This document shows, in pieces, positions 26,712-57,300 of a stretch of DNA of 64,000 nt. The position numbers and the translations under genes are program-made. How positions within the stretch are numbered: the stretch's first letter is position 1; each line of letters starts with the position of its first letter. Under the pieces are notes generated by a model that was not told the DNA's origin, made no database searches, and was given only the letters and a program-made list of their open reading frames with translations. This DNA comes from Comamonadaceae bacterium. Its GTDB lineage: Bacteria; Pseudomonadota; Gammaproteobacteria; Burkholderiales; Burkholderiaceae_C. The stretch lies in the NCBI GenBank assembly GCA_031421855.1, contig JANOPN010000198.1:2397-66396 (forward strand), given 5' to 3'.

Positions 26712-27482
26712 ATGGCCATGCAAGACATCAAAACCCACATCGAACAAGGCGTTCTCACGCTGACCTTCAACCGCTTAGACAAGAAGAACTCAATCAATGT
26801 GGCCATGTACGCGGCCTTGGCCGAAGCGCTGAGCCAAGCCGTCACTGACCCCGCGATTCGGGTGGTGCTCATCCAGGGCGACGCGACGATTTTCAGCGCT
26901 GGTAACGACATGGGTGACTTTTTAAACAACAAGCCCACGACCACCGAGTCACCTGTGTTTCGGTTTTTGCATGCGCTGGCGCAGTTCCCTAAGCCGTTGA
27001 TCGCGGCGGTTTGCGGGCCTGCGGTCGGCATTGGCACCACCTTGCTGTTTCACTGCGACTTGGTCTACGCGGGGGACAATGCCGCGTTTTCAATGCCTTT
27101 TGTGAACCTTGGTTTGTGCCCCGAAGCCGCCAGCAGCGTGCTCGTGCCGCAAATGCTGGGCTACCACCGCGCCGCAGAAGCGCTGTTGCTGGGTGAGCCG
27201 TTCATGGCAGAAGCTGCCCTTGAGGTCGGCTTGGTCAACCGCGTGCTGGCCCCAACCGAGGCCAACAACTACGCTGCAGGTGTCGCGAAAAAGCTCGCGG
27301 CCAAACCCCTGAGCAGCCTGATCGAGACCAAGCGCCTGATGAAAAAGGGCCAAGCCAAGCTGATCGCCGACGTCATCAACGAGGAAAGCGTCAGTTTTGG
27401 CCGCATGCTGGGCGAGCCGGCAGCCCGAGAAGCCTTGGGGGCATTCATGGAGCGGCGCAAACCCGATTTTTCCAAGGTTTGA
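26712..27482 (+). CDS. Enoyl-CoA hydratase/isomerase (crotonase) family protein
   Basis: LTLTFNRLDKKNS, IFSAGNDMGDF, AAVCGPAVGIGTTLLFHCDLVYA. Confidence 0.88.
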   Translation: MAMQDIKTHIEQGVLTLTFNRLDKKNSINVAMYAALAEALSQAVTDPAIRVVLIQGDATIFSAGNDMGDFLNNKPTTTESPVFRFLHALAQFPKPLIAAVCGPAVGIGTTLLFHCDLVYAGDNAAFSMPFVNLGLCPEAASSVLVPQMLGYHRAAEALLLGEPFMAEAALEVGLVNRVLAPTEANNYAAGVAKKLAAKPLSSLIETKRLMKKGQAKLIADVINEESVSFGRMLGEPAAREALGAFMERRKPDFSKV

Positions 27483-28111
27483 GCAAGGTGTCGAGCCCGC
27501 CAACTCGGCAAATGTCGCTGGCTGAGGCGCAGGCCAGTGGCGAGTTTGTTGCGTTGGCCAGCATCGCAGGCATTCGGGTGGATTTGCGATACGCGAGCCC
27601 GCACAATTTTCTAGGCCGAAACATCTACGGCGACATGGACTGCGCTTGGCTACACCGCGACGCCGCGCTGGCCTTGTCTCGGGCACAAGCGCAACTCAAC
27701 CAACTCGCACCCGGCGCGCAGTTGCTGGTGTTGGACGCGCTTCGACCGCATCGCATCCAAATTGAGCTGTTTGAGAGCCTGCGTGGAACGGGCCTTGAGC
27801 TGTATTTGGCCCCACCTGAGCGAGGCTCGATTCACAGTTTTGGCATGGCGCTTGACGTCACCATCGTCGACGCCAAGGGCTGTGAGGTGGACATGGGCAC
27901 GGGCTTTGATGCCATGGTGTCCGCCTCTCACCCTGAGTTTGAAGCCGCAAGCCTGGCCAGCGGTGAGCTAACCCCGCAACACATTGAGGCGCGTCAACGG
28001 CTGCGGCAAGTCATGACCGGCAATGGCTTTCAGGGCATAAGCACCGAATGGTGGCACTTTGACTGCGGCAACAAAGACCAAATTCGGGCTCAGTACGCTC
28101 GCGTAGACTAA
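27479..28111 (+). CDS. D-alanyl-D-alanine dipeptidase (VanX/DdpX, peptidase M15D)
   Basis: VDLRYASPHNFLG, SIHSFGMALDVTIVD and EWWHFD zinc-site motifs. Start is uncertain: TTG 27479 overlaps the upstream stop, with GTG 27488 and ATG 27512 as alternatives. Confidence 0.85.
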   Translation: MSKVSSPPTRQMSLAEAQASGEFVALASIAGIRVDLRYASPHNFLGRNIYGDMDCAWLHRDAALALSRAQAQLNQLAPGAQLLVLDALRPHRIQIELFESLRGTGLELYLAPPERGSIHSFGMALDVTIVDAKGCEVDMGTGFDAMVSASHPEFEAASLASGELTPQHIEARQRLRQVMTGNGFQGISTEWWHFDCGNKDQIRAQYARVD

Positions 28112-28116
28112 TTAAT

Positions 28117-28218
28117 AGGACTTATGCAAAATTGTCCCAGCAAGGCGCAGCGACGACGACAGTGCGAACAGCACGGCTAGGAGCTGCAACGCGGCTGGGG
28201 TGGTTTTGCGTAAGTCCT
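28117..28218 (+). repeat. 102-nt long-hairpin element (family B), copy B
   Basis: Same architecture as 17185-17286. Lies between the convergent ddpX-like and dacB genes. Followed 3 nt later by family-A copy 8. Confidence 0.9.
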
Positions 28219-28220
28219 AA

Positions 28221-28283
28221 TTAAAATAATAGCAACGAACCCAATAGATCCGGAGACCAAGGGCTGATTTCACTCAAAAAATG
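28221..28283 (+). repeat. Family-A interspersed repeat, copy 8 (core 28229-28262)
   Basis: TTAAAATAATAGCAACGAACCCAATAGATCCGGAGACCAAGGGCTGATTTCACTCAAAAAATG. Ends at the dacB stop codon. Confidence 0.85.
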
Positions 28284-29849
28284 TCAAAAATCAACTTCCA
28301 GACTGATTTTTGAGCCGCGCGACTTCGCCGCCCATTCGATCACTGCGTCCAGCACGGCGCGGGCGGTTTTGCCTTGGACTTTTTCATCGTTGAGCATGGC
28401 CACCACCACCAAGGGCTGGTCGGCTGCATCGCGCACATAGCCGGCCACGGCGTAGGCATTTCTGAGCGTTCCGGTTTTCATGCGGGCGCGCTCTTGGGCT
28501 GCGGTGTTTTTGAGCCGATTGCGCATGGTGCCATCCACCCCCACGATGGGCATGCTGGCTTGCAACTCGGGCGCCCACCGGCTCGCGCCGGCCACTTGCA
28601 AAACCTGGCCGAGCGTGCGGGCGCTGATGCGCTCGCTGCGCGACAAGCCGGAGCCATTGTCCAAAACCAAACCCGTGGTGTCGATTTGGTTGTCAGTCAT
28701 CCAGGCTTTGACGCTGGCTGCCGCCCGGTCGGCTGTGTGGTTCGCCCCCACGGCTGCAGACTGCGTTCCCAACGCCAAAAAGGTCATCCGGGTAATCGGA
28801 TTGTCGCTGATTTTGTTGATCTCGCGCAGCAGTTCAGACAAGGGGCGAGCGCTGCTGCTGGCCAAGATTTGTCCAGCTGGCAAAACCTCTGCGGGTGTCG
28901 CTTCGCGCACCGCGGCAGACCAAACACCGCCCATTTGCCGCCAAAGGCTCGCCAAAAAACCATGGGCAAACCGGGTGCGATCGAGCACGTTGAGCTGGGT
29001 TGATGCCTTGCAGTTGCGCGGAAAAGTGCCCGACAGCTTGACGGTTGCCGTGCCATTGGCTTCAACGACAACGGGCAAAACCCATCCGTTTTCCCAAGAC
29101 GGGCAGCTCGCGTCGATCAATTTGAAGTCACCAGTCAGCGCCACACCGGCAAGCGGCGGATCCATCGCCAAGCTCACGGTCGTCGAGGTCGATTGCAGGC
29201 GAACGCCCATCAAGTTCATGTTGAGCGAAAGTGCATCTGGCACGACGTTGTAGCGAAACTCGGGCGCTTCATCGAAGGGCGTGAGGCCCAAATCGGGCCG
29301 CGTCGGCGAGTAGTGCGAACGATCAATCACGACGGTGCCGCTGATCTCACGCACGCCAGAGTCCATCAAACTCTTGAGCCAACGATTCGTGGCTTCAACA
29401 TTCAACTCGGCATGTCCAACACCACGAATGACCGATGTCCCAGCCAATGCCGTGTTTGAGGCGTCAGCCGCACCCGACAAAGTGCCCCGCCACTCGACAC
29501 GCCCACGATGCAGTGGCCCCAAACGCTCCAAAGCGACCACGGATGTGATCAGTTTCATCGTCGAGCCGGGCTGCATCGGCACGTCCACGTTGTACGACAA
29601 CCTGGCTTGGGCGCGCCGATTGAGCGGTTGCACCAAAATCGACACCGAATTTAATGGTAGTTCAGCAGAGCTAATGAGAGCCAGAACGTCGGGTGGAAGG
29701 GCTGAGTTAGTGCGTGGTTCAGCATGCGACAGGGCCGAATGAGAGGTTGCGCACGCACCCAGTGCGCCAATGGCGGCCAACGCGGCTAAGCCAAACACCA
29801 TCCGGCCAGCACGCAACACAAACCGCCCGATCTGTCGAAGTAAAAACAT
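28284..29849 (-). CDS. dacB: D-alanyl-D-alanine carboxypeptidase/endopeptidase (PBP4, peptidase S13)
   Basis: SxxK (PGSTMKL), SxN (KISDNP) and KTG (RMKTGTL) motifs. Signal-like N-terminus MFLLRQIGRFVLRAGRMVFGLAALAAIGALGACA. ATG 29849 with AGGA 9 nt upstream. Confidence 0.88.
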   Translation of the reverse strand: MFLLRQIGRFVLRAGRMVFGLAALAAIGALGACATSHSALSHAEPRTNSALPPDVLALISSAELPLNSVSILVQPLNRRAQARLSYNVDVPMQPGSTMKLITSVVALERLGPLHRGRVEWRGTLSGAADASNTALAGTSVIRGVGHAELNVEATNRWLKSLMDSGVREISGTVVIDRSHYSPTRPDLGLTPFDEAPEFRYNVVPDALSLNMNLMGVRLQSTSTTVSLAMDPPLAGVALTGDFKLIDASCPSWENGWVLPVVVEANGTATVKLSGTFPRNCKASTQLNVLDRTRFAHGFLASLWRQMGGVWSAAVREATPAEVLPAGQILASSSARPLSELLREINKISDNPITRMTFLALGTQSAAVGANHTADRAAASVKAWMTDNQIDTTGLVLDNGSGLSRSERISARTLGQVLQVAGASRWAPELQASMPIVGVDGTMRNRLKNTAAQERARMKTGTLRNAYAVAGYVRDAADQPLVVVAMLNDEKVQGKTARAVLDAVIEWAAKSRGSKISLEVDF

Positions 29850-30065
29850 CGCTGTCAATCCTGTTGCGCTTACGCCTATCGGGGTAAACATGTGTGAAGA
29901 AATGAACACGTAACATTTCATAATGTAAGTCGTGCCACAAGCGCTGCGCCAATCGCCAAATTGCGACCCACCCGTCCCAATTTGAAGCAAGCGGCAAGGG
30001 AAACCATGAGCCGTTTGGCCCGACCTCCTTTCACATCACCCACTCGACCTCAAGGAAAAGACCAA

Positions 30066-32834
30066 GTGAAACTCAACAAAATTGCCCTAGCTGCAACACT
30101 GGGCTGCGCTGCCACCTCCGGTTTTGCGCAAACCGCCGATAACGCCCAAAAGCAAGAGCGAATCGAAATCACCGGGTCAAGCATCAAGCGCGTACAAGAT
30201 GCGACCGCCTTACCGATTCAGATCATTACCCGTGCCGACATCGAAAAAGCGGGCATCGTCAGCGCCGAGCAACTGATCGCCACAATCTCAGCCAATGGCA
30301 CCAGTGCCGATAACTTGAGCTCTAACGTCGGCATTCAGCTGGGCAGCTCCGACCGAAACAACAACGGCAACTCAAGCGCAAACTTGCGTGGGCTAGGTTC
30401 ATCCAGCACCTTGGTCTTGCTCAACGGTCGCCGCGTGTCGCTCCACGGCGCAAAAGGCAACTCGGTGGACTTGAATTCCATCCCGCTTGCTGCCGTTCGG
30501 CGTGTTGAGGTGTTGAAAGACGGCGCTTCCGCCATTTACGGCACGGACGCAATCGGCGGCGTGATCAACTTCATTTTGGAAAGCAACTTCCAAGGCGCGA
30601 CCGTCACCGGTTTTGTGGATGCCACACAGCACGGCGGCGGCAACATTTACCGCGGCTCGGTCACAGCGGGCACTGGTGACCTGGCCAAAGACAAATACAA
30701 CATCATGGGCAGCTTGACGATTGATCGCCAAGAAATTCTGAAACCAGACGATCGACGCAGTTTCGTCAATGGGTTCCAGCCCGAGCGCGGCTTGTCTCCG
30801 GACACCGCCGGCACACCTTACGCCACTCACACTGGCGGCGCCAACACCGCCATTGGTGCCAGCTATCGGCTACCAGCCACGGGCACACAAGCCTACACAC
30901 GCGCAAATTTATTGAGTTTTCAGGGTAAGTGCGACTCGGTCCCCGGACAGTCGCAGTATCAGTTTGTGCTTTGGGACACAGCCAGCTTTCGAAACGCCTG
31001 TGCCTTTGACTACGGTGGTTCAGCGATCCTGATTCAACCCATTGATCGCCTGAATTTGGTGACTCGTGGACGCTACGAGCTAAGCGGCGAACACGCGGTG
31101 ATTGCCGAATTGGTCGCCTCAACCACCAAAGCTGTGAAGCAGTTCGAGGCAAGCCAGCTGACAACCAGCATCGCCGCGGGCAATGCCTACCCAGTCAACG
31201 GACCGTACTACCAAGACCTGTCGGCATTCATTCCGACGTTTGACAAGACAAAACCAATTGCCTACCGCTGGCGCTGCACGATTTGCGGCGGTCGAACGAT
31301 TGAAACCGAGACTCGCGCCCATCGCTTGCTTGTCGGCATGGAGGGCGTGCTGGGCGCATATGACTACAAAGTGGGCCTATCGACCGCTGGCAGCGGCGCA
31401 GACTCAACGCTTGGGCGTGGTTACATGCGCAATACCGACAAAAACGGGGTTCCTGGCCTGAACAGCGTGCTGGGCTCTGGCATTTTGAACCCATGGTTGC
31501 TGCCAGGCCAGACGCAGACCGCTGCGGGTTTGGCTGCCTTGGACGGCGCGCGCGCCGACGGCACCAAGCTGTTTGGTGGACGCGCCAAACTTAGCCAGCT
31601 TGATGGCTCGATCTCGGGCGAGTTGATGAAGCTCCCGGCAGGCCCATTGGCATTTGCCGCGGGTGTCGATATGCGCAGCGAGAGCTACCAGTTCAGCAAC
31701 GCAGCAGTGACGACCGAAGTCATTCGTGATGCGCCGTTTGACCCAGAATTTGCCAAAGTGTCGCGCACCATCAAAGCCGTTTACGGCGAGTTGGCGATTC
31801 CGATCACCAAAACGCTGGAAACATCCCTTGCGATTCGGCACGACAAGTACAGTGATTTTGGTGGCACCACCAACCCCAAAATTTCGTTCAAGTTCTCGCC
31901 CATCAAGGAGCTCGCGTTCCGTGGCTCAGCCAACACCGGCTTTCGCGCACCAAGCTTCTTCCAGCTTTATGGCGCCACCAGTGAGTCACCTGTGCCAGGC
32001 AACGTTGCTGACCCAATTTTGTGCCCCCAACGCCCAGGCGACGTGACAGTGTGCGCGATCCGGCCTTTGGCTCGGTTTGGCGGAAACAAAGACTTGCAGC
32101 CCGAAACCGCCAAGCAACTCACGTTGGGCTTCGTGGTTGCGCCGACCGATTGGATGACGGCCAGCATCGACATGTGGCGCATCGCGCGGCGAGATCGCAT
32201 TTATGAGCTGACTCCACAGCAAGTTCTCGCCAATTACACGACCTTTCCCACGAACTTGGTTCGTGGAACCAATGGTTTGCTTGACGGTCCCGGCGGCTAC
32301 ATCCGCGCAGGCTTTGTCAACGCAGACGGAGACATTCTTCGTGGAACCGAGCTCAGCTTGGCATTCAACGGCAAGGTTGCAGGTGGCAAGTGGACAGCCA
32401 AACTCGACGGTACATACATCGACGAATTCAAGTCGCGGGTCTTCGTGACCGACAAATATGTCGACACCGTGGGGAAATGGAATTCACGCGATTTGTATGT
32501 CCGCTGGAAACACGGCGCAAGTGTGAGCTACGAGACAGGCCCTTGGAGCGTCACCGTGAGCCAGCAGTACACGTCAGGCTATAAAGACGAAGTGCCGTTC
32601 ACGCCACCACCGGGCTTCAGCCCAGATGTGAGCGCATACACAACTTACGGCGCGTCGGTGAGCTACACGGGCATCAAGAACGCGACGCTGCGTTTGGGTG
32701 TCAAAAACTTGTTTGATACCAAGCCACCGTTCACCGCGCACAATGTTGACTTCGCCTCCGGCGCTGGCTGGGATCCACGCGTAGGCGACCCCCGTTTGCG
32801 TGCCTTCACGTTTGGTGCAACCTACAAGTTCTAA
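30066..32834 (+). CDS. TonB-dependent outer-membrane receptor
   Basis: Signal peptide VKLNKIALAATLGCAATSGFAQ. Plug region ERIEITGSSIKR...RVEVLKDGASAIYGTDAIGGVINF. C-terminal FGATYKF. GTG 30066 follows AGGA; ATG 30006 is an alternative. Confidence 0.9.
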   Translation: MKLNKIALAATLGCAATSGFAQTADNAQKQERIEITGSSIKRVQDATALPIQIITRADIEKAGIVSAEQLIATISANGTSADNLSSNVGIQLGSSDRNNNGNSSANLRGLGSSSTLVLLNGRRVSLHGAKGNSVDLNSIPLAAVRRVEVLKDGASAIYGTDAIGGVINFILESNFQGATVTGFVDATQHGGGNIYRGSVTAGTGDLAKDKYNIMGSLTIDRQEILKPDDRRSFVNGFQPERGLSPDTAGTPYATHTGGANTAIGASYRLPATGTQAYTRANLLSFQGKCDSVPGQSQYQFVLWDTASFRNACAFDYGGSAILIQPIDRLNLVTRGRYELSGEHAVIAELVASTTKAVKQFEASQLTTSIAAGNAYPVNGPYYQDLSAFIPTFDKTKPIAYRWRCTICGGRTIETETRAHRLLVGMEGVLGAYDYKVGLSTAGSGADSTLGRGYMRNTDKNGVPGLNSVLGSGILNPWLLPGQTQTAAGLAALDGARADGTKLFGGRAKLSQLDGSISGELMKLPAGPLAFAAGVDMRSESYQFSNAAVTTEVIRDAPFDPEFAKVSRTIKAVYGELAIPITKTLETSLAIRHDKYSDFGGTTNPKISFKFSPIKELAFRGSANTGFRAPSFFQLYGATSESPVPGNVADPILCPQRPGDVTVCAIRPLARFGGNKDLQPETAKQLTLGFVVAPTDWMTASIDMWRIARRDRIYELTPQQVLANYTTFPTNLVRGTNGLLDGPGGYIRAGFVNADGDILRGTELSLAFNGKVAGGKWTAKLDGTYIDEFKSRVFVTDKYVDTVGKWNSRDLYVRWKHGASVSYETGPWSVTVSQQYTSGYKDEVPFTPPPGFSPDVSAYTTYGASVSYTGIKNATLRLGVKNLFDTKPPFTAHNVDFASGAGWDPRVGDPRLRAFTFGATYKF

Positions 32835-32861
32835 ACCAGGACGCGTTAGCACCACCCGATA

Positions 32862-32899
32862 AGCAGGGCGCTCGTAAGAGCGGCCCTGCTTTTTTTATT
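32862..32899 (+). terminator. Rho-independent terminator after the TonB-dependent receptor
   Basis: Hairpin AGCAGGGCGCTC-GTAA-GAGCGGCCCTGCT followed by TTTTTTTATT. Confidence 0.8.
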
Positions 32900-32920
32900 C
32901 CCTTTTCTGAGCCTTTGACG

Positions 32921-34018
32921 ATGCAAAACCGACGACAGGCCATCGCTGCGGTTGCGGCCACCGTGACGACTTTGGCTGGCTGCGCCGCACCCACTGCATC
33001 GGGCTTGGTGACCAAAGCTGCCAATCGACCCACGATCAAACCGCCACCTTTGCGTGCAGGCGACACGATCGGCCTCGTGGCGACGAGCGGTGTGCTGAAT
33101 CCGACTGGCGTGGCACAGCGTGTGTCCAACTTGGAGGGTATGGGCTTCAAGGTGCGCTTGAGTAAGCACTTACTCGCACGCTGGGGCGGCTATGCGGGCA
33201 CGGTTGAACAACGCTTAGACGACTTACATGCGATGTTTTCTGATGCCGATGTGCGCGCGGTTTGGGCTGCGCGTGGCGGCTCGGGCTTGAGTGCGCTTCT
33301 GCCGCACATTGACTATTCGCTGCTCGCCAAAAATCCAAAAATTGTTGTGGGCTACTCCGATGTCACGGCCCTGCACATGGCTTTGTACAGCCAAATTGGT
33401 CTGGTGAGTTTTCATGGCCCCACTGCGGGGTCGACGTTTTCAGAATTCAATGTGCGCAATCTCCGCGCCGTGCTCATGGGCGAATCGCGCGGCTACGCAA
33501 TGGGCCACGCGCCCGAGAATCTTGCCCGCGCGCTGACCGAGTCCGCCTTTAAGCCACGCACCCATGTGGCCGGTCGTGCCGTGGGCGCGCTCTTGGGCGG
33601 CAATTTGAGTGTGCTCGCCGCCTTGGTTGGCACACCGTATTTGACCCCGCTCGGCGGACACTTGCTTTTTTTAGAAGAGATCGACGAAGCCCCGTACCGG
33701 GTTGATCGGCTCATGCATCAGCTGCAGCAAAGCAACGCCCGTGGCCAACGGGCCTTAGGTGAGTTAGGCGGATCGAGCGGCTGCGCGGGTGTCATGGTCG
33801 GTGTTTTCAGCAAGTGCGAAGCTCGACCCGGCGACCAATCACTGAGCCTGCAAGAAGTATTGAGCGAACACTTGGACTCACTCGGTGTGCCAGCCGTGTC
33901 AGGGTACGGCGTTGGCCACATCGCCCACCAAATGACCCTACCCATTGGGATCACGGCCGAGCTCGACACGGCCAAGCAGCAACTGACGCTGCTGGAGTCG
34001 GCGACCGATGCGAGTTGA
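32921..34018 (+). CDS. ldcA: LD-carboxypeptidase (peptidase S66, LdcA family) with a predicted Tat/lipoprotein export signal
   Basis: VVGYSDVTALH nucleophile motif and the LFLEEIDEAPYRVDRLMHQL region. N-terminus MQNRRQAIAAVAATVTTLAGC has a twin-Arg plus a lipobox-like Cys. Confidence 0.82.
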   Translation: MQNRRQAIAAVAATVTTLAGCAAPTASGLVTKAANRPTIKPPPLRAGDTIGLVATSGVLNPTGVAQRVSNLEGMGFKVRLSKHLLARWGGYAGTVEQRLDDLHAMFSDADVRAVWAARGGSGLSALLPHIDYSLLAKNPKIVVGYSDVTALHMALYSQIGLVSFHGPTAGSTFSEFNVRNLRAVLMGESRGYAMGHAPENLARALTESAFKPRTHVAGRAVGALLGGNLSVLAALVGTPYLTPLGGHLLFLEEIDEAPYRVDRLMHQLQQSNARGQRALGELGGSSGCAGVMVGVFSKCEARPGDQSLSLQEVLSEHLDSLGVPAVSGYGVGHIAHQMTLPIGITAELDTAKQQLTLLESATDAS

Positions 34019-34020
34019 GC

Positions 34021-34090
34021 TACTATGTTTTTAGTAGCAACAAACTCAATGAATCCGGAGACCAAGTGCCGAAAAATCCTAAAATTCGAT
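34021..34090 (+). repeat. Family-A interspersed repeat, copy 9 (core ~34034-34068)
   Basis: TTTTTAGTAGCAACAAACTCAATGAATCCGGAGACCAAGTGCCGAAAAATCCTAAAATTCG. Lies between the convergent ldcA and AmpH-like genes and overlaps the latter's stop codon. Confidence 0.85.
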
Positions 34091-36291: not shown

Positions 36292-36295
36292 GGTG

Positions 36296-38874: not shown

Positions 38875-38876
38875 GC

Positions 38877-40046: not shown

Positions 40047-41329
40047 TTGCCCTCCTGCGCGCGCTGGCCAAAGGCAGGGTCGATCTTCAAAAACACGGTC
40101 ACCAGCACCGACGGCAAGGTCGCGATACAAACCCAGATGAAGAAGTTCGGATATCCAATGGCTTGCTGAATGTAGCCACTTACCATGCCCGGCAACATCA
40201 TGCCCATCGCCATGAAGCCTGTACACAGCGCGTAGTGCGCCGTTTTATGCGGCCCGTCAGCCACCATGATCATGAAGAGCAAATACGCCGCAAAGCCAAA
40301 GCCGTAGCCAAACTGTTCGACCATCAAGGCAGCCGATATGGCGACCATGCTGGTCGGTTGCGTGTAGGCGAGCACCACAAACAAAATGTTGGGCAAGTGC
40401 ACCGCCAACAACATCGGCCAAATCCAGCGCTTTAAACCATGCTTTGAGATCGCCAAACCACCCAAAATGCCGCCGACCGTGAGCGAAGCCACACCCAGGG
40501 TGCCGTACACCAAGCCCACTTGCTGGGTACTCAAGTTCAAGCCGCCCTTATCCATTGGGTCAAGCAAAAAAGGGGCAACCAGTTTGAGCGCCTGCGCTTC
40601 ACCCAAGCGAAACGTCAACAAGAACGCCAACACAATGAAGATATCTTTGCGCTTGAAAAACGACTTAAACGTCAACACAAACTCAGTCCAAACCGCTGTG
40701 CCCCGAGTTCGAACCGCTTGGTCGGTGCTGGGTCGCGGCAACACAAAGCGGTGATAAACGCTGAGCAGCACAAACAAGAGCGCCAGTACCCAGAAAACGA
40801 TTGACCAGGCCGTCCGCACGTCGCCTGTCCAGTCGCGCAAGCTGCCGGCGAGCCACACCAAAGCCCCTTGCCCAGCGATGTTGGCCAGTCGATAAAACGT
40901 GCTGCGCACCCCGACAAAAGCCGCTTGTTGATGCTGCTCCAGACTCAGCATGTAAAAGCCGTCGGCTGCGATGTCATGGGTCGCAGACGCAAACGCCATC
41001 AGCCACAAAACGGCCAGCGACATTTGCACAAAATTCGATGTCGGCAAAGTCAAAGCAACTAAAGCCATGGCCGCTGCAACGACCGCTTGCAAGGTCACAA
41101 TCCAAAATCGTTTGGTGCGAAACATGTCAACCAGCGGCGACCACAGCGGCTTGATGACCCACGGCAAATACAACCAGCTGGTGTAGGCGGCGATCTCGCC
41201 ATTGCTCAGCCCCAAGTTTTTGAACATGATGACCGACAGCGTCATCACAACCACATACGGAATGCCTTGCCCGAAATAGAGCGTCGGAATCCACGCCCAA
41301 GGGTTTCGTTTTGCAATCGATTGACTCAT
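40043..41329 (-). CDS. ampG: AmpG-family muropeptide MFS permease
   Basis: PWAWIPTLYFGQGIPYVVV...YLPWVIKPLWSPLVD pattern of AmpG/PAT-family transporters; 12-14 TM. ATGA overlap with the murQ stop. Confidence 0.82.
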   Translation of the reverse strand: MSQSIAKRNPWAWIPTLYFGQGIPYVVVMTLSVIMFKNLGLSNGEIAAYTSWLYLPWVIKPLWSPLVDMFRTKRFWIVTLQAVVAAAMALVALTLPTSNFVQMSLAVLWLMAFASATHDIAADGFYMLSLEQHQQAAFVGVRSTFYRLANIAGQGALVWLAGSLRDWTGDVRTAWSIVFWVLALLFVLLSVYHRFVLPRPSTDQAVRTRGTAVWTEFVLTFKSFFKRKDIFIVLAFLLTFRLGEAQALKLVAPFLLDPMDKGGLNLSTQQVGLVYGTLGVASLTVGGILGGLAISKHGLKRWIWPMLLAVHLPNILFVVLAYTQPTSMVAISAALMVEQFGYGFGFAAYLLFMIMVADGPHKTAHYALCTGFMAMGMMLPGMVSGYIQQAIGYPNFFIWVCIATLPSVLVTVFLKIDPAFGQRAQEGK

Positions 41330-42237
41330 GGGGCTTTTCCTTCAAGTGCTTTGCGCACATTGCCGTCCACGCCGTCAAGCAAGGATTTGGCTTGTTCGGC
41401 GCTCAGGGATTTCAAAATAGCAACGATGGCGACCTTGACCGACCCCGCGCAGGCTAGCAAGGTTGAGGCCGCAACGGACTCTTCGGCGTCGGTTGCCAAC
41501 ATCGTCAACCGAATGCTGCGGCGCACCAGCTTGGCATTGGTCGCCTTGAGGTCAACCATCAGGTTGCCGTGAACTTTGTTCAGGCGCACCATGATGCCGC
41601 TTGAAATCGCGTTAAGCGTGATTTTTTGCGAGGTTCCGGCTTTGAGGCGTGTGCTGCCCGAGATGACCTCGGGGCCCGTGTCGAGCACGATGCCAATGTC
41701 AGCCTGACGGGCCACCGGCGCGTCGGCGTTGTTGGCAATGCCGATGCTCAACGCGCCAGCTGATTTGGCTTTTGCCAATGCACCCAGCGCATACGGGGTC
41801 GTGCCAGAAGCTGCCAAGGCAATCACAACGTCGACGGTTTGCACATCGACCGCTTGCAAGTCAATTGCGCCTTGCTCAAAGTTGTCCTCGGCACCTTCAA
41901 CGGCTTGGTAGATGGCTTGTTTGCCACCGGCCAGTAGGGCAATCGCGCGCTCGCGCGGCCACGAGAAAGTTGGATAGAGCTCAACGCTGTCCAGCAAACC
42001 CAGCCGACCCGACGTGCCTGCGCCGACGTAAATCAGTCTCCCACCTTCGCGCAGCCTGGCGGTTGCTGCGTTTACCGCACGGGCAATTTCCTTTGATGCC
42101 GCGCGCACGGCTTCAACGGCTTCGCGCTGATCGTCAATCAAGGCACCGACTAAGTCTTCGGTGGTGTAGCTGTCCAATTGGCTATGCTGAGGGTGCGCTT
42201 GCTCGGTTTGGAGGATGAGGGGAGCAGGGGTCGTCAT
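41326..42237 (-). CDS. murQ: N-acetylmuramic acid 6-phosphate etherase
   Basis: SIS domain with GRLIYVGAGTSGRLG and ALAASGTTPYALGALAKAKSAGALSIGIANN. ATG 42237 is the first start after the upstream stop at 42257. Confidence 0.88.
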   Translation of the reverse strand: MTTPAPLILQTEQAHPQHSQLDSYTTEDLVGALIDDQREAVEAVRAASKEIARAVNAATARLREGGRLIYVGAGTSGRLGLLDSVELYPTFSWPRERAIALLAGGKQAIYQAVEGAEDNFEQGAIDLQAVDVQTVDVVIALAASGTTPYALGALAKAKSAGALSIGIANNADAPVARQADIGIVLDTGPEVISGSTRLKAGTSQKITLNAISSGIMVRLNKVHGNLMVDLKATNAKLVRRSIRLTMLATDAEESVAASTLLACAGSVKVAIVAILKSLSAEQAKSLLDGVDGNVRKALEGKAP

Positions 42238-42256
42238 GTGTGGGTTTTGGTTCACC

Positions 42257-43291
42257 TCAATGGGTGCGAGTGACTTTTGACAAATGCGCCGGCTCATCGG
42301 GGTTCAGACCTCGCAAACGCGCCAACGCCTCGACCATGACATAAAACGACTGCATCGCGCAAATGCCATCAAGCAATGGGTGTCGGCTCTCAACAATCGT
42401 TAAGTCAGATGCAACGCCAGAGACGTTGCCTGACGCAGCAACCAACACCGCAGCACCACGCTCGCGCAAGGCCTTCGACACCGCGAGGGCATCCGCTTGT
42501 CCAGGGCCGCGCGGCGCGATGACCAACACGGCGAAACCGGGCTGCACCAAAGCCATTGGGCCGTGAACGACCTCGGCACTTGAGAAGGCCTCGGCATGAA
42601 TGCCGCAGGTTTCCTTGAACTTGAGCGCCACCTCCATGGCAAGCGGCCAAGCGGACCCACGTCCCAAAACATAGAGCTGATGCACGCGCGCAAGCCTATC
42701 CAAAGCCTTCGACCAATTTTCGGTCAAGGCACGATTCATGGTCTGAGGTAAGGCCGACAACGCGTCGGCCAAATGGTCGTCTTGTTGCCACAAAGCCTGC
42801 AAATGCAGGCCGGCCACCAGTTGCGCCAAATAGCTCTTGGTGGCCGCCACACTCGTCTCAGGACCGGCGTGCAGGTCAAGTGCCCATCGCGCACCCGTCG
42901 CCAAAGGCGATTTCAGGTCGTTGACCCAAGCCACAGTTGGTGACCCGGCGTTTGCGAAATGCGCCATCGCCGCAACCAAGTCTGGGCTTTGCCCCGATTG
43001 CGAGAACGCAAAGGCCCAGGTGTTTGGGCCGCCGCTGGGCGCTTGGAACAAGTTCACCAAGGAGCTTGGAATCGAGGTGATCACACGTTTGCTTGCCGCC
43101 ATCGCGTTGTAGGCAAAAAAACTGGCCGCATGATCCGAGCTGCCGCGTGCCAAGGTGAGCATGGCTTCGCAAGCGTTGGCTCGCAGCTCGCCCGCAAGTT
43201 CGCTAACCGCAGCCGCGTTCGCAGCGAGTTGATGGGCAACGCGTGTTGGAGCCTCGCTCGCCTCCTTGAACATTTGCGTCGGGCTATTCAT
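42257..43291 (-). CDS. SIS-domain sugar isomerase/deaminase (NagB-II-type glucosamine-6-phosphate deaminase, GlmS C-terminal-like)
   Basis: Two SIS-like halves: LARGSSDHAASFFAYN... and LYVLGRGSAWPLAMEVALKFKET. Sits between nagA and murQ. Confidence 0.75.
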   Translation of the reverse strand: MNSPTQMFKEASEAPTRVAHQLAANAAAVSELAGELRANACEAMLTLARGSSDHAASFFAYNAMAASKRVITSIPSSLVNLFQAPSGGPNTWAFAFSQSGQSPDLVAAMAHFANAGSPTVAWVNDLKSPLATGARWALDLHAGPETSVAATKSYLAQLVAGLHLQALWQQDDHLADALSALPQTMNRALTENWSKALDRLARVHQLYVLGRGSAWPLAMEVALKFKETCGIHAEAFSSAEVVHGPMALVQPGFAVLVIAPRGPGQADALAVSKALRERGAAVLVAASGNVSGVASDLTIVESRHPLLDGICAMQSFYVMVEALARLRGLNPDEPAHLSKVTRTH

Positions 43292-43300
43292 CGATCTGTT

Positions 43301-44437
43301 TCACTCAATTCCTTGGACATCAAGCCCAGCAGCGAGCACCCGTTGTAGCTGCAAATTCGCATCGAACACCACCACATCGGCCCAGGCGCCAACCGCGAGC
43401 ACACCTCGGTCGGTCAACCCCAAATAGTTGGCTGCACGGGTCGCCGTCAACGCGCTGGCCTGCGCATAACTCAAGCCCAGAACTTGCACCAAGTTGCGAA
43501 ACGCTTGGTCCATCGTCAACGCCGAGCCCGCCAAGGTCCCATCAGCGAGCCGCACCGCGCCCAGACATTTATGTACTGAATGCGATCCCAATTGATAGCT
43601 TCCGTCTGGCATGCCAGTGGCCGCTGTGGCATCGGTCACGCAAAACGCGCCGGGAATGCAGCGCAAGGCCACACGAATCGCCCCCGGGTGAACGTGAATC
43701 GTGTCCACAATGACCTCAGCGTGGATCGCATGGGCCAAGGCCGCCCCCACCACACCCGGCTCGCGGTGATGCAAGCCCGACATGGCATTGAACACATGGG
43801 TGATACCCAGCGCACCGCGCTTCAAAGCCGCCGCCGCTTGCTCGTAGCTGGCATTGCTGTGACCGATTTGCACCTTAAAGCCCTGAGCGTTCAGGCCATC
43901 GATCAAGGCATCATGTCCAGGCAGTTCGGGGGCCAGCGTGATCACTCGAATCGGCGCAATGGCGTGCAAGCGCGCAATCTCAGCCACGTCGCCGCCTCGC
44001 GCAAAGTCGGGCTGCGCGCCCAACTTGCTTGGGTTGATGAATGGCCCCTCAAGATGAACGCCGAGGATCGTCGCCGCACCGCTTGAACTTGCATCAATCG
44101 CCGCGCGAACGCCCTTAAACGCAGCGACCAGCTCGGGCTCAGGCGCAGTCAAAGTCGTGGCCAGCATGGCAGTCGTGCCAAATTGGGCATGAGCGCGGGC
44201 GATGCGCAAGGCCGCATCGCCACCGTCCATGAAATCGCACCCTTTGCCGCCGTGGACATGGGTGTCAACAAAACCTGGTACGGCGAACGCGGCGCGAGAC
44301 TCGACCACCTCGGCCTCGCTCACTGGCGCGCCCTCGATGCGGTCGATGCGACCGCCGCGCCAACTCACTGTGGCATCAAAAAAACCAGTGGGCATCAGGG
44401 CATAACCCCTGAAGTGGCCCTCGTTGCGACTCATCAT
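43301..44437 (-). CDS. nagA: N-acetylglucosamine-6-phosphate deacetylase
   Basis: PGFVDTHVHGGKGCDFMDG metal-binding motif, GVHLEGPFINP, THVFNAMS. Confidence 0.9.
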   Translation of the reverse strand: MMSRNEGHFRGYALMPTGFFDATVSWRGGRIDRIEGAPVSEAEVVESRAAFAVPGFVDTHVHGGKGCDFMDGGDAALRIARAHAQFGTTAMLATTLTAPEPELVAAFKGVRAAIDASSSGAATILGVHLEGPFINPSKLGAQPDFARGGDVAEIARLHAIAPIRVITLAPELPGHDALIDGLNAQGFKVQIGHSNASYEQAAAALKRGALGITHVFNAMSGLHHREPGVVGAALAHAIHAEVIVDTIHVHPGAIRVALRCIPGAFCVTDATAATGMPDGSYQLGSHSVHKCLGAVRLADGTLAGSALTMDQAFRNLVQVLGLSYAQASALTATRAANYLGLTDRGVLAVGAWADVVVFDANLQLQRVLAAGLDVQGIE

Positions 44438-44545
44438 CCGGTAATCCTAACAAACGCATCCAAAATACCTCACAGTACATTTGCTGAGTCAAAGTCGATA
44501 GCACAACGCATTAAGCACCATCAGCAGCGCTTATGTATCACCAGG

Positions 44546-45796
44546 ATGCCCCCACTCATGGCCCTTGCTTACCTCTGGATCAGTTTTTTCGTCGTCGGAT
44601 TTGTTGCCGCTCTGGCCCAGTGGTTGTTCATGGGTGACGTCGATATTTTCAAAAAAATCGTCGATGGCACGTTTGATTCAGCCAAAGCTGCAGTGATGGA
44701 CATCGCTTTGCCACTGGCGGGCGTGATGACGCTGTGGCTCGGCATCTTGAACGTGGGCGAAAAGGCGGGCGCTATTGACTATGTGGCGCGCGTCATCGGG
44801 CCGTTCTTTTCGCGGATCTTTCCAGAGGTGCCGAAAAACCACCCCGCTACCGGCTTGATGGTGATGAACTACTCAGCAAACTTCTTGGGTTTGGACAACG
44901 CGGCGACACCCATCGGCCTCAAAGCGATGGAAAGCTTGCAGTCGATCAACCCGCAAAAAGACACCGCCAGCAACGCGCAGCTGATGTTTTTGGTGCTTCA
45001 AACCGCGGGTCTCACGCTCATTCCCATCACCGTGATGGCTCAGCGAGCGGTACTCGGTGCCAAAGACCCATCCGACATCTTCATCCCCACCATGATTGCG
45101 ACCTTTGTCGGCACCGTTGTCGCGTTTTTCGCAGTCGCGCTCAAGCAGCGCATCAACGTATTTGACCGCGTCATCATGGGCTGGATTGGCGGTATCAGCG
45201 CCTTCATGCTCGCCATCGTTTGGTACTTCACCCAGGTGCTAAGCCGAGCCGAAATTCAAGTCGTGTCCAAAGTGGCCAGCAACTTGGTGCTGCTGAGCAT
45301 CATCGTGATCTTCTTGCTGCTCGCCGCCCGCAAAAAAGTCAACGCGTACGAGGCCTTCATTGAAGGCGCAAAAGGGGGTATCCAAACCTCGTTGGTCATC
45401 ATTCCGTACTTGGTGGGCATGCTGGTTGCGATTTCGGTGCTGCGCAATTCAGGCGTGTTGGGCTGGGTCGTCAACGCGTTTGCTTGGGGGTTCGCGCAAA
45501 TGGGTTTCAACACCGATTTCACCCCGGCCTTGCCCACGGCCATCATGAAATCCGTCAGCGGCAGCGGTGCCCGCGCCATGATGATCGAAGCCATGAAGAC
45601 CTACGGCGTTGACTCATTCGTGGGCCGCCTGGTGAGCATCATGCAAGGCTCGTCAGACACCACCTTCTACATCGTCGCCCTGTATTTCGGCTCAGTCGGT
45701 ATCGTCAAGACCCGTTACGCGATCACCTACGGCCTATTGGCCGATGTCGCAGGCGTGATTGCGGCGATTTGGGTGGCGTATTTGTTCTTTCATTGA
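44546..45796 (+). CDS. Nucleoside-recognition (Gate) domain membrane protein, fused SpmA/SpmB-like
   Basis: Two Gate-like halves and ~10 TM. N-terminal LPLAGVMTLWLGILNVGEKAG...NYSANFLGLDNAATPIGLKAM pattern. ATG 44546 or 44558. The 44183 start in the track would overlap nagA. Confidence 0.7.
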   Translation: MPPLMALAYLWISFFVVGFVAALAQWLFMGDVDIFKKIVDGTFDSAKAAVMDIALPLAGVMTLWLGILNVGEKAGAIDYVARVIGPFFSRIFPEVPKNHPATGLMVMNYSANFLGLDNAATPIGLKAMESLQSINPQKDTASNAQLMFLVLQTAGLTLIPITVMAQRAVLGAKDPSDIFIPTMIATFVGTVVAFFAVALKQRINVFDRVIMGWIGGISAFMLAIVWYFTQVLSRAEIQVVSKVASNLVLLSIIVIFLLLAARKKVNAYEAFIEGAKGGIQTSLVIIPYLVGMLVAISVLRNSGVLGWVVNAFAWGFAQMGFNTDFTPALPTAIMKSVSGSGARAMMIEAMKTYGVDSFVGRLVSIMQGSSDTTFYIVALYFGSVGIVKTRYAITYGLLADVAGVIAAIWVAYLFFH

Positions 45797-45817
45797 TGCG
45801 ATTTCAGGCGATTCGCG

Positions 45818-46840
45818 TCACAAGCTGACCCGGTTCTCGGTCAGGTAGAACCACTCATTTCCCGGCAATGCGTTGGCATCAGGGAACAAAATTCGGCCGC
45901 TGATTGGGGAGCGCACTTCGGTGCCGTCTGCCCGGGTGCCAATCAAGTCACCCACGCTCAAACTGTCAAAACTGCCCCACGTGCGGACGAAGGTGTCGCC
46001 AGCGTCTAGCCGGTCAATGACGTCGATCATGCTGAGGTACTCGTAGCTTGCTACCGGCACGGGCGGCTGGGCGTCGCTGATGCCCAAATGTGCCAATGTG
46101 TTGCAAATGGCTTGGTACGCCACCTCGGGCGATTGCGGGTCGGCGTGCGAGCCGCACTCCAGCGTGATGGCGTAGCCGCCCATCGCTCGCATGTATTCGG
46201 TGGTGCCCACGCCGTAGCGCGAGTCGGTGTTCAGGGCTGCGCTTTTGCTGTCTTTGCCGCCGACACCGCCTTGGGCCATGCGTTGCGCTCTGCGCATCGT
46301 TCCTTGGGCATAAGTGTTGAGCCAACCATCCACAAAGCGGCCTACGCCCAACCGCAGCGCCATGGCACGCTCCGCTTTTTCGTGTGTAAACGACTGCAAC
46401 ACCCCGTTGTTGTCTCGTGGACCAATCATGGCAAACGCGGGGTTTTGCGCATGGGTTGAGTGGCAATCCAACAGCACATCGTGGGCAGCAAGCTGGGGGC
46501 ACAACCAGTTGGCGATGCCATCTTCAAAGTCTTGCGCTTGATCCGTTGGGAACAGGTTGCGGTTGAGGTTGCGGTCACCCACACGCACCCCGCGCGCATA
46601 CGCCAAAGGGTTCGTTACTGGAACCAAGGTCAACATCCCGGCGCGAATGCGAATGGCTCCGCGCTCAATGTCAGCCATGACGCGGCGAATCGCGATGGGG
46701 CCACAGACCTCGTTGCCGTGCACCGCGCCCGTGACGATCAAACTAAGCCCCGGGCGCTGCCCGTGAAACTGGTGCGACGCGAAATGCAACGCAGCGGCAT
46801 CGATCGGCAAGCCTGCCGGCGTGGTGTATGGAGTGGTCAT
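45818..46840 (-). CDS. Succinylglutamate desuccinylase/aspartoacylase (AstE/AspA) family zinc hydrolase
   Basis: LIVTGAVHGNEVCGP zinc-binding HxxE motif, plus a later His (LLDCHSTH). ATG 46840 preferred over TTG 46846. Confidence 0.72.
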   Translation of the reverse strand: MTTPYTTPAGLPIDAAALHFASHQFHGQRPGLSLIVTGAVHGNEVCGPIAIRRVMADIERGAIRIRAGMLTLVPVTNPLAYARGVRVGDRNLNRNLFPTDQAQDFEDGIANWLCPQLAAHDVLLDCHSTHAQNPAFAMIGPRDNNGVLQSFTHEKAERAMALRLGVGRFVDGWLNTYAQGTMRRAQRMAQGGVGGKDSKSAALNTDSRYGVGTTEYMRAMGGYAITLECGSHADPQSPEVAYQAICNTLAHLGISDAQPPVPVASYEYLSMIDVIDRLDAGDTFVRTWGSFDSLSVGDLIGTRADGTEVRSPISGRILFPDANALPGNEWFYLTENRVSL

Positions 46841-46875
46841 GACCAATTTGGGCGCGCTTGCACCCGTTGAAGATG

Positions 46876-46940: not shown

Positions 46941-46944
46941 CGCT

Positions 46945-47196: not shown

Positions 47197-47228
47197 ATTT
47201 GTTCAGTGAGTTGATGGTTAGGCTTGGT

Positions 47229-57230: not shown

Positions 57231-57300
57231 TTCACTGGATAAAAGTCGCATATTGAGGCTCGTGCCACGCTAAACAACGACTGTCAACGACAATCACCGC

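Follow-up and report, generated by a model that had tools for sequence, protein, structure and literature searches.

How do fragments of peptidoglycan (PG) from outside the cell cross the outer membrane of a Gram-negative bacterium? The passage of muropeptides across this membrane is essentially undescribed, and the sole hint that we found, from 2014, is indirect and concerns NixC of Xanthomonas. The question is raised by a locus of about 19 kb from a Comamonadaceae bacterium (order Burkholderiales; NCBI GenBank assembly GCA_031421855.1, contig JANOPN010000198.1, positions 2,397 to 66,396 of the forward strand), in which the gene for a TonB-dependent receptor lies among genes for PG breakdown and amino sugar catabolism. 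We call the whole 64,000-nucleotide stretch the window and give positions within it. An earlier note, made from the letters of this DNA, had proposed that the locus harvests environmental PG fragments, an interpretation that our analysis partly supports. With a probability of roughly 60%, we take the locus to encode an envelope-spanning system for the uptake and breakdown of soluble PG fragments, which would be muropeptides and/or free stem peptides.

This reading is carried first by the genes that accompany the receptor in other genomes. We scanned one genome per GTDB species for the receptor, took 80 of the 570 candidate loci with 10 kb of flank on either side (L numbers below are our labels for loci), and detected neighbors by tblastn with all window proteins (E value of at most 1e-8, query coverage of at least 50%). 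When the receptor is at least 43% identical to that of the window, 25 of 29 loci contain two or more PG-gene homologues within 10 kb, with a mean of 4.2 per locus, and at 36 to 43% identity 15 of 25 loci contain one or more. In contrast, only 2 of the 26 loci with paralogues of 35% identity or less have such a neighbor, both being weak S66 matches (Fisher P = 2e-9 for the group at or above 43% against the group at or below 35%). In a neighbor-joining tree, all sequences at or below 35% identity fall in one clade and all PG-linked receptors, including that of the window, fall in the other. The linked genes occur in at least nine orders across Beta-, Alpha-, and Gammaproteobacteria, carried by Massilia, Janthinobacterium, Duganella, Rugamonas, Undibacterium, Ideonella, Pelomonas/Roseateles, Comamonadaceae, Sphingomonadales, and Gammaproteobacteria. 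The receptor is indeed tied to PG metabolism, as the earlier note had claimed; the tie is conserved, goes far beyond chance adjacency, and is specific to a single receptor clade.

The receptor itself starts with a signal peptide, contains a TonB-box-like ERIEITGS, and ends in F. Its nearest relatives, 62 to 69% identical over the full length, come mostly from Burkholderiales-type genomes and freshwater metagenomes. It falls below the cutoff of every NCBIfam receptor subfamily, with a best score among the siderophore, haem, and B12 models of 115.7 versus 323.75. The model TIGR01782 of the Xanthomonas/Caulobacter carbohydrate subfamily, to which the GlcNAc/chito-oligosaccharide receptors NixC and CC0446 belong, gave 52.3 bits versus a cutoff of 310; the SusC/RagA model TIGR04056 gave 18.6 versus 368. 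Among solved structures, the plug alone finds matches. In the intergenic region upstream of the receptor gene (29850-30065), the best match to a Fur box was 11 of 19 positions, which is the background level, and no match to a sigma-70 promoter rose above chance. We rejected a siderophore receptor on the basis of the subfamily scores and the missing Fur box, and a SusC-type polysaccharide utilization locus (PUL) on the basis of the TIGR04056 score and the lack of a SusD-family match among the locus genes. A related proposal is that the adjacency is coincidental and that the receptor takes up something unrelated to PG, for instance an iron chelate. It draws on the haem, B12, and siderophore models being the top NCBIfam matches by E value and on the automatic JGI name of the homologues, "iron complex outermembrane receptor." Those matches are mostly to the plug only, and the synteny with PG genes, conserved yet rearranged across classes and set apart from the paralogue clade by the test above, brings this proposal close to refutation.

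The identity of the most frequent neighbors bears on the substrate. In the 29 loci of the group at or above 43% identity, homologues of the S66 gene were found in 22, S13 in 19, M15 in 15, and Gate in 12, followed by the amidase, kinase, and GHL10 genes (9 each), AmpG (7), and MurQ (6); with only 10 kb of flank covered, genes at the distal end of the sugar operon are underestimated. The earlier note had asked whether this receptor family is syntenic with murQ and ampG; a PG-linked clade does exist, but its top partners are the S66, S13, M15, and S12 genes, not murQ or ampG. Because the most conserved partners are these four families of stem-peptide enzymes, the feature common to the receptor contexts is probably the stem peptide, and the substrate would most simply be a peptide-bearing PG fragment. 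Fragments reaching the periplasm are predicted still to carry glycan, at least for the Burkholderiales versions, because these encode a periplasmic MurNAc-L-Ala amidase (MurNAc, N-acetylmuramic acid) and a GHL10 enzyme of the type that acts on denuded glycan. Two gene fusions support a tie between the enzymes: a 775-amino-acid Amidase_2, PG_binding_1, and Beta-lactamase fusion in a metagenome locus (L088, 19179-21506), which corresponds to two genes overlapping by 4 nt in the window, and a 659-amino-acid Peptidase_M15 and Beta-lactamase fusion in a gammaproteobacterial metagenome-assembled genome (MAG; L038, 7937-9916).

The architecture of the window, in which M15, S13, receptor, and S66 genes face an opposite-strand run of S12, amidase, kinase, GHL10, NagX, AmpG, MurQ, and NagB genes, recurs in L001, L004, L051, and L087 (receptor 64 to 67% identical), the last on an 818-kb contig with a receptor 64% identical. 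Other arrangements place AmpG divergent from a receptor-M15-S66 unit (Ideonella sp. A 288, L006, and L018), combine GHL10-kinase-amidase-LysR-M15, S13-Gate, and SBP5-receptor-S66 units (Massilia, Pseudoduganella, Rugamonas, and Janthinobacterium), or join S12 to MurQ-LysR-receptor-S66 (Duganella). A Comamonadaceae type includes a Dpp-like ABC system, two AmpG paralogues, and an AstE-like gene (L023 and L025), L022 and L027 have AmpG beside receptor-(beta-lactamase2)-S66-AstE, and Undibacterium (L007) has a type of its own. AmpG is divergent from the receptor in L003, L006, L018, L022, L027, and L034. In the Sphingomonadales, the receptor stands beside an S66 or S12 gene and usually has one peptidase as its sole partner, while Allopontixanthobacter has S13-receptor, GntR-MurQ-BadF kinase, NagB-NagA, and AmpG-like units. 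Four loci in the group at or above 43% identity have no homologue of a window PG gene, and the two gammaproteobacterial types among them have nonhomologous murein-peptide genes instead: in Rheinheimera nanhaiensis (L021), the receptor is adjoined by genes for an RpiR/MurR-type regulator, an enolase-superfamily (MR_MLE) protein resembling L-Ala-D/L-Glu epimerases, and an NlpC/P60-SH3b peptidase, and in L038 the M15-S12 fusion lies upstream and an alanine racemase with a twin-arginine translocation (Tat) signal lies downstream. When we started from the Gate gene instead, the nagA...murQ-ampG-nagX operon was divergent from it in all three contigs examined, and the sister genome L085, whose Gate protein is 91% identical to that of the window, keeps the operon. 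In Burkholderiales, the sugar operon thus behaves as a module accompanying the receptor. As a separate observation, an enoyl-CoA hydratase gene (26733-27482) abuts the M15 gene, and its 54%-identical homologue in Undibacterium (L007, 4-633) abuts an AmpG-like gene; this is probably a remnant of shared gene-order ancestry.

These neighbors also bear on the idea that the locus is a GlcNAc or chito-oligosaccharide locus of the Shewanella or Xanthomonas type (GlcNAc, N-acetylglucosamine) that happens to lie beside wall-remodeling genes. TonB-dependent receptors for GlcNAc-type substrates are known in Caulobacter and Xanthomonas, NagA is present, and the best NCBIfam matches of three window genes are the Shewanella NagX, NagB-II, and NagK models. 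All three of those matches are below cutoff (Table 1), as is the receptor's match to the Xanthomonas/Caulobacter model, and MurQ lies inside the operon. The conserved receptor neighbors are peptidases, not sugar enzymes, and the Sphingomonadales and gammaproteobacterial loci that have any PG neighbor mostly show peptide enzymes only. A chitin locus was rejected on these neighbors and on the lack of chitinase, GH20 hexosaminidase, and NagP among the locus genes, and we give the broader idea only a slight chance.

All 15 genes named in the earlier note were recovered within 27479-46846 by open reading frame (ORF), Pfam, and NCBIfam analysis (Table 1). Start codons are inferred throughout; the longest M15 ORF begins at 27479, and an alternative murQ start at 42297 would turn the 19-nt gap upstream of this gene into a 41-nt overlap. 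The minus-strand run of nine genes (34079-44437) has the tight packing described in that note, with four 4-nt overlaps (ATGA, GTGA, GTGA, and ATGA) and gaps of 4, 2, 19, and 9 nt at the remaining junctions. The dacB gene, with an ATG start at 29849, is divergent from the receptor gene, which is probably its own transcription unit because a strong hairpin and U7 follow it; we spotted this terminator by eye and then confirmed it by folding. A promoter and terminator scan of 27400-47300 gave counts at or below shuffle expectation, uninformative on operon limits, and Rfam and tRNA scans of the window gave no match. The locus has the GC content of its flanks, which hold a fatty-acid beta-oxidation cluster on one side and a leucine/isovalerate (Liu/Atu-type) cluster on the other.

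Table 1. Features of the locus and the dispersed repeat, with positions in the window (scores are bits versus NCBIfam cutoff; MFE, minimum free energy; MFS, major facilitator superfamily)
Feature	Position	Strand	Evidence
M15 D-Ala-D-Ala dipeptidase (DdpX/VanX-like)	27512-28111	+	Pfam Peptidase_M15 E 4.5e-29; NF007557 133 vs 176
S13 PBP4/DacB-type DD-endopeptidase/carboxypeptidase	28284-29849	-	Peptidase_S13 E 2.1e-66; TIGR00666 168 vs 107.8
dacB/receptor divergent intergenic region, presumed promoters	29850-30065		
TonB-dependent receptor, 922 aa	30066-32834	+	Plug and TonB_dep_Rec_b-barrel domains (Pfam)
Intrinsic-terminator-like hairpin and U7, 3' of receptor gene	32861-32896	+	MFE -23.8 kcal/mol, z = -5.6 vs shuffles
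S66 LD-carboxypeptidase-like (LdcA-like)	32921-34018	+	Peptidase_S66 and S66C domains; NF008424 163 vs 378
Beta-lactamase-fold S12 serine hydrolase, last gene of minus-strand operon	34079-35503	-	Pfam Beta-lactamase E 6.9e-35
AmpDh2/AmiD-type N-acetylmuramoyl-L-alanine amidase	35500-36291	-	Amidase_2 and PG_binding_1 domains
BadF/BadG/BcrA/BcrD-family sugar kinase (MurK/NagK-like)	36296-37240	-	BcrAD_BadFG E 6.7e-12; NagK_SO3507 41.4 vs 370
GHL10 glycan-cleaving enzyme (Cwp19/DigH family)	37237-38874	-	Pfam GHL10 PF02638 E 1.5e-53
HGSNAT/NagX-like polytopic membrane acetyltransferase	38877-40046	-	HGSNAT_cat E 5e-10; NagX_SO_3504 137.9 vs 480
Divergent AmpG-family MFS permease	40043-41329	-	TIGR00901 191 vs 350; AmpG equivalog model 109 vs 756
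MurQ, MurNAc-6-phosphate etherase	41326-42237	-	TIGR00274 307.6 vs 302; NF003915 364.9 vs 168
SIS-domain GlcN-6-P deaminase, NagB-II-like	42257-43291	-	NagB_SO3506 best match, 259.7 vs 430; two SIS stretches
NagA, GlcNAc-6-P deacetylase, first operon gene	43301-44437	-	TIGR00221 261 vs 225.65
nagA/Gate divergent intergenic region	44438-44557		
Gate-domain membrane protein, fused SpmA/SpmB homologue	44558-45796	+	Two Gate stretches (Pfam)
AstE/AspA-family zinc amidohydrolase	45818-46840	-	AstE_AspA_cat E 1.8e-16
Dispersed repeat copies	4454, 12379, 14173(-), 17403(-), 25264, 28230, 34035, 46887, 48225, 49524(-), 54152(-), 61197		

Three of the proteins, MurQ, NagA, and PBP4/DacB, pass NCBIfam equivalog cutoffs. 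The M15, S66, AmpG-family, NagX-like, NagB-II-like, BadF-type kinase, and S12 proteins are secure at the level of their Pfam families and fall below those cutoffs, so that the earlier labels AmpG, HGSNAT-like, SIS deaminase, and BadF kinase stand as family names only. The catalytic motifs are readable in the M15 (SxHxxGxAxD and EWWH) and DacB (SxxK, SDN, and KTG) translations. Comparison with the PDB refined several of the other labels. The amidase is a full-length homologue of E. coli AmiD, as had been said (E value 8e-55), with P. aeruginosa AmpDh2 the closest (1.2e-92) and AmiD second. The GHL10 protein belongs to the YddW/DigH family named for it, and its closest match is Cwp19 of C. difficile (1.8e-59). 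E. coli DigH is described as a hydrolase of denuded glycan (PMC12288456) and Cwp19 is reported to be a lytic transglycosylase (PMC6016235); the window protein, which has both the catalytic domain and an export signal, may be either. The AmpG-like permease aligns over its full length with solved AmpG structures (3e-26), and TIGR00901 is its best family yet is below cutoff; the kinase weakly matches a MurNAc/GlcNAc kinase structure (8zo3, 4e-6). An AmpH-like identity for the S12 protein holds at the family level, but the AmpH model NF007943 gives only 56.7 versus 266, and its PDB matches are generic S12 enzymes, including D-peptidases, alkaline D-peptidase, and ClbP.

Lipoboxes are readable in DacB (LGAC), the S66 protein (LAGC, preceded by a twin-arginine-like NRRQAI), the S12 protein (LSGC), the amidase (LGAC), and the GHL10 protein (LSAC), and among homologues in 13 of 13 amidases and 8 of 12 GHL10 proteins. 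A signal peptide is lacking in the M15, kinase, MurQ, NagB-II, NagA, and AstE-like proteins. The M15 dipeptidase is for this reason placed in the cytoplasm, and the kinase and the AstE-like protein are also taken to be cytoplasmic. Most receptor-linked S66 homologues begin with a Tat-like signal of the RR(R)F type, such as SRRRFGGLLAA, and we predict that they are a periplasmic LD-carboxypeptidase-like subfamily, unlike the cytoplasmic LdcA of E. coli. For the "exported LdcA" of the earlier note, the export signal is thus present, but the protein is equally near to MccF (6e-29) and to LdcA of P. aeruginosa (PA5198, 3e-31).

This last similarity raises the possibility that the locus takes up or detoxifies other peptides with D-amino acids, such as nonribosomal peptide antibiotics or microcin-C-like compounds, with the S66, S12, and M15 proteins acting as resistance or catabolic hydrolases; the alkaline D-peptidase and ClbP among the S12 matches point the same way. 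We think that this has only a very slight chance of being right, since the amidase with its AmpDh2 match, GHL10, AmpG-like, MurQ, and PBP4 genes repeatedly co-occur with the receptor, the amidase-S12 and M15-S12 fusions exist, and the neighbors in Rheinheimera are of the NlpC/P60 and L-Ala-D/L-Glu epimerase-like kinds.

If the locus takes up soluble PG fragments, the gene set suggests how it might work, and the substrates, the order of the steps, and the physiological role that follow are our proposal. PG fragments measure about 0.9 to 2 kDa and are too large for porins. At the outer membrane, the receptor would import them actively, energized by TonB. In the periplasm, the S13 DacB and S12 hydrolase could cleave cross-links and take off terminal D-Ala, the S66 enzyme could trim tetrapeptides, the AmpDh2/AmiD-type amidase could strip peptides from MurNAc, and the GHL10 enzyme could cut the bared glycan, while NagX may re-N-acetylate de-acetylated sugars (glucosamine residues). 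At the inner membrane, the AmpG-like permease would import sugars or muropeptides and the SpmA/SpmB-like Gate protein a peptide-type product. In the cytoplasm, DdpX would split D-Ala-D-Ala, and the AstE-like hydrolase might cleave an N-acyl-amino-acid bond, possibly, and speculatively, the gamma-D-Glu-diaminopimelate bond, as MpaA does. The BadF-type kinase, MurQ, NagA, and NagB-II would then convert MurNAc and GlcNAc to fructose-6-phosphate, D-lactate, acetate, and ammonia. Disaccharide splitting of the NagZ type would have to come from outside the window, AnmK would be needed from elsewhere if the GHL10 enzyme is a lytic transglycosylase, and the catabolism of L-Ala, D-Glu, diaminopimelate, and D-Ala would be supplied from elsewhere.

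Several observations weigh against this proposal. The locus encodes no secreted lysozyme-type or PG-depolymerizing enzyme, and the wall of the cell itself could just as well be the target of the periplasmic enzymes. Six assignments (the AmpG-, NagX-, and NagB-II-like proteins, the kinase, and the S12 and S66 proteins) are made at the family level only. The pathway that the earlier note called complete is so only if housekeeping genes elsewhere fill in the missing steps. Neither peptide-catabolic genes of the MpaA, YcjG, or PepD type nor a D-Ala dehydrogenase gene was found in the window. The locus sample is phylogenetically nonindependent, with many Oxalobacteraceae and many MAG contigs, and inside the PG-linked clade there are loci with no PG neighbor, namely, 10 at 36 to 43% identity and L019 and L029 at or above 43%. 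Because the hydrolases carry lipoprotein and Tat signals typical of the periplasm and no lysozyme-type enzyme is secreted, soluble fragments, not intact sacculi, are the likely substrate.

The same observations could describe a consolidated housekeeping set for remodeling and recycling of the cell's own wall, with a receptor that recaptures leaked fragments or is dispensable. In E. coli and P. aeruginosa, endogenous turnover likewise relies on the AmpDh2/AmiD, DacB, LdcA, AmpG, MurQ, and NagA families. The lipoproteins of the locus face the sacculus of the cell that makes them, with no secreted lysin beside them, and Xanthomonas NixC has been connected with stationary-phase PG products of the bacterium itself (PMC4173781). 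However, turnover products already in the periplasm need no TonB-energized importer, yet the receptor is the most conserved partner; the amidase and LdcA-like proteins are exported, unlike the cytoplasmic AmpD and LdcA of recycling; NagB-II and DdpX point to catabolism and not to re-use; mpl, anmK, and nagZ are absent from the locus; and the regulators in relatives are of a catabolic type. We therefore regard the own-wall explanation as unlikely, and the harvesting of exogenous fragments appears to be the most economical reading of the gene content when set against the recapture of own fragments.

The Gate protein is a candidate inner membrane carrier. Its homologues carry the JGI names SpmA and SpmA/SpmB, and a 412-amino-acid form is 100% identical over 99% of the query. 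In 14 of 15 loci, the Gate gene has a gene for a family-5 solute-binding protein (SBP_bac_5) within 400 nt, and the two occur in three arrangements (the observation covers L008-L016, L020, L023, L025, L026, L072, L084, and L086); no ABC permease gene was found beside the pair in the stretches examined, from Oxalobacteraceae and Betaproteobacteria bacterium UKL13-2. The Gate protein may be a binding-protein-dependent secondary carrier; the binding-protein gene has been lost from the window and from the sister genome L085. In 10 loci (L008, L009, L011, L012, L014-L016, L020, L026, and L072), the Gate gene is directly upstream of an S13 dacB-like gene in the same orientation. This order resembles the dacB-spmA-spmB operon of B. 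subtilis and suggests that SpmAB-type proteins and DD-peptidases have long been associated.

In the AstE-like protein, the HxxE, H, and E motifs are intact and all PDB matches are weak; its gene is co-located with the receptor in L022, L023, L025, L027, and L087. In the last of these (3768-7588), it forms an operon with a sodium:solute symporter family (SSF) gene and an EPSP-synthase/MurA-fold gene, beside the M15 gene, an arrangement that hints at a small imported molecule as the substrate of the AstE-like enzyme. In the sister genome L085, an additional gene for a 479-amino-acid NAD-binding oxidoreductase (11250-12689), absent from the window, lies between the Gate and AstE-like genes.

As the earlier note had reported from its own inspection, Pfam and NCBIfam scans detected no dedicated regulator, nagZ, or anmK gene in the locus; all three, and Mpl, were also missing from the scanned ORFs of the 64-kb window (those of at least 180 amino acids, except 57232-57930), and the sister genome L085 likewise has no regulator gene in the locus. 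The GntR, LysR, and SBP5 genes found in relatives are all absent from the window. A GntR/UTRA regulator gene occurs in L079, L084, and L086; it heads the nagA operon in UKL13-2 and L086 and lies inside the cluster in Allopontixanthobacter. A LysR gene is present in 10 loci of Oxalobacteraceae and Pelomonas, and an RpiR gene in Rheinheimera (L021). In UKL13-2, a tandem TGGTAKT-N4-TGGTATT site is found in the divergent region between GntR-nagA and SBP5-Gate and again upstream of murQ (L084, 8116-8133 and 3294-3311), and the same site stands about 190 to 220 nt upstream of the receptor in L001 (9813), L004 (9831), and L017 (9778). It would place the receptor in a putative regulon together with the sugar genes. 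We take TGGTATT to be the half-site of NagQ. No copy of the tandem site was found in the window, whose nagA/Gate region (44438-44557) has neither the regulator gene nor the tandem TGGTATT site that relatives have there. The Oxalobacteraceae instead share AAAGTTATGG-N(14-17)-TTTCATTGGCTGG upstream of the receptor, together with the LysR gene. A search for a shared operator among the intergenic regions of the locus gave only short, chance-level matches.

Which known system does the locus most resemble? The closest functional analogue is the nine-gene operon Tanf_08345-08385 of T. forsythia, which contains ampG, murT, murK, and murQ and scavenges foreign PG (PMC7670621 and PMC5388701). Both combine AmpG, a BadF-type kinase, and MurQ, in T. 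forsythia in a single transcription unit and in the window in one tightly packed same-strand run, the kinase match being weak in the window as given above. In contrast, T. forsythia belongs to the Bacteroidota, is a MurNAc auxotroph that uses its operon mainly for biosynthesis, and regulates it by the hybrid two-component protein GppX; it has the SSF-type transporter MurT, whereas the window locus has no SSF gene, and its operon as described in those papers includes no dedicated TonB-dependent receptor, no periplasmic S13, S66, S12, and amidase set, and no NagA or NagB-II.

Among proteobacterial systems, the GlcNAc carbohydrate utilization system with TonB-dependent receptors (CUT) of Xanthomonas campestris consists of NagQ/NagR, NagP, NagA, NagB-II, NagK-II, and the receptors NixA-D, of which NixC, a chito-oligosaccharide receptor and orthologue of CC0446, is indirectly implicated in the outer membrane uptake of PG products (PMC4173781). 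The likeness is a receptor-based utilization route that feeds NagA and NagB-II; the differences are that the Xanthomonas genes form a dispersed regulon, and that the window lacks NagP, a hexosaminidase, and a regulator but has the peptidases and MurQ. Caulobacter GlcNAc clusters also use a receptor, and Caulobacter has no MurQ or LdcA (PMC13046382). The Shewanella Nag pathway does not describe the window, given the subcutoff NagX, NagK, and NagB-II scores and the missing NagP. The "PUL-like" label of the earlier note does not apply in the strict sense. The window shares with Bacteroidota PULs a TonB-dependent importer, lipoprotein hydrolases, an inner membrane carrier, and cytoplasmic catabolism, but it has no SusD-like gene, its receptor is not of the SusC/RagA type, and no surface-exposed enzymes are predicted. 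The proteobacterial CUT concept fits better: the receptor, inner membrane carriers (AmpG-family and Gate), and degradative enzymes are all there, and only the regulator is missing.

Compared with PG recycling in E. coli and P. aeruginosa, the enzyme families are the same, with MurQ, NagA, and PBP4 above cutoff and an AmpDh2/AmiD homologue. The window differs in that the genes are clustered with an outer membrane receptor, the amidase and LdcA-like protein are exported and not cytoplasmic, NagZ, AnmK, Mpl, and AmpD are lacking, the deaminase is of the NagB-II type, and the kinase is of the BadF type and not AnmK or NagK. Murein peptides and D-Ala-D-Ala are utilized through ddpXABCDF and mppA/opp in E. 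coli and through ykfABCD in B. subtilis, in which YkfA is an S66 enzyme. The window has a DdpX-type dipeptidase and an S66 enzyme as well, relatives have a family-5 binding protein by the Gate gene, and Rheinheimera has YkfB/YkfC-like genes (MR_MLE and NlpC/P60-SH3b), but an SpmA/SpmB-type protein takes the place of the ABC transporter, and the outer membrane receptor has no counterpart in those systems. In the terms of these comparisons, the locus would be a TonB-dependent utilization locus applied to PG, with several uncharacterized components. TonB is nowhere mentioned in a 2024 review of muropeptide transporters, which lists no outer membrane importer of this kind, and a full-text literature search, with most subscription journals not covered, found no description of a receptor-linked PG utilization locus.

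The rest of the window provided additional observations. A dispersed repeat of about 31 to 60 nt, with the core TAGCAACRAACYCAATRRATYYSGAGACCAA usually followed by GKGCCAAAAA, is present in 12 copies per 64 kb versus 0 expected. It is mostly intergenic, with three copies in spacers of the PG locus; it has no Rfam match, its exact core is absent from the 84 loci examined, and no copy with 6 or fewer mismatches was found in the sister L085 or five other loci. It looks like a lineage-specific element resembling repetitive extragenic palindromes or miniature inverted-repeat transposable elements (REP/MITE-like). Two copies lie inside intact ORFs, at 48225-48255 in a TetR ORF (47871-48629) and at 49524-49554 in a carboxyltransferase ORF (48654-50336), both in variable linkers where the sister-genome proteins align gaplessly with a different sequence; these copies may represent an old in-frame insertion or a conversion. 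A DUF2799 lipoprotein gene (47229-47795, minus strand, VAGC lipobox) lies between the AstE-like and TetR genes and is probably outside the system, because no homologue was found in 83 related loci and no gene is called at this position in the sister genome. The end of a division and cell wall (dcw) cluster (ftsW, murG, murC, ddl, ftsQ, ftsA, and ftsZ, then lpxC) occupies 574-10026, about 17 kb upstream of the PG locus. Three long ORFs gave no Pfam match: 10023-11792 (plus strand, 589 amino acids), 14284-15930 (minus strand, 548 amino acids), and 57791-59020 (minus strand, 409 amino acids).

In dead bacterial biomass and in dissolved organic matter, PG represents a large reservoir of carbon and nitrogen. 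The receptor family described here would be a testable candidate importer, and a conserved, recognizable family tied to stem-peptide enzymes could serve as a metagenome marker for consumers of cell walls. The locus also provides leads on proteins of unknown role, namely, the SpmA/SpmB-type membrane proteins, the exported S66 enzymes, the AstE-like hydrolase, and NagX, and it has a bearing on muropeptide signaling and on the entry routes of antibiotics that mimic PG. More tentatively, and with somewhat less than even confidence, we suggest that the receptor clade is a dedicated outer membrane importer for PG fragments that bear stem peptides, widespread in Beta-, Alpha-, and Gammaproteobacteria and working with two other uncharacterized components, a Tat-exported periplasmic S66 LD-carboxypeptidase and an SpmA/SpmB-type inner membrane carrier, which is paired with a family-5 binding protein in most relatives and may be a new binding-protein-dependent secondary transporter for murein peptides. 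If this is true, the system would be a main route by which free-living Proteobacteria consume the cell wall necromass of other bacteria.

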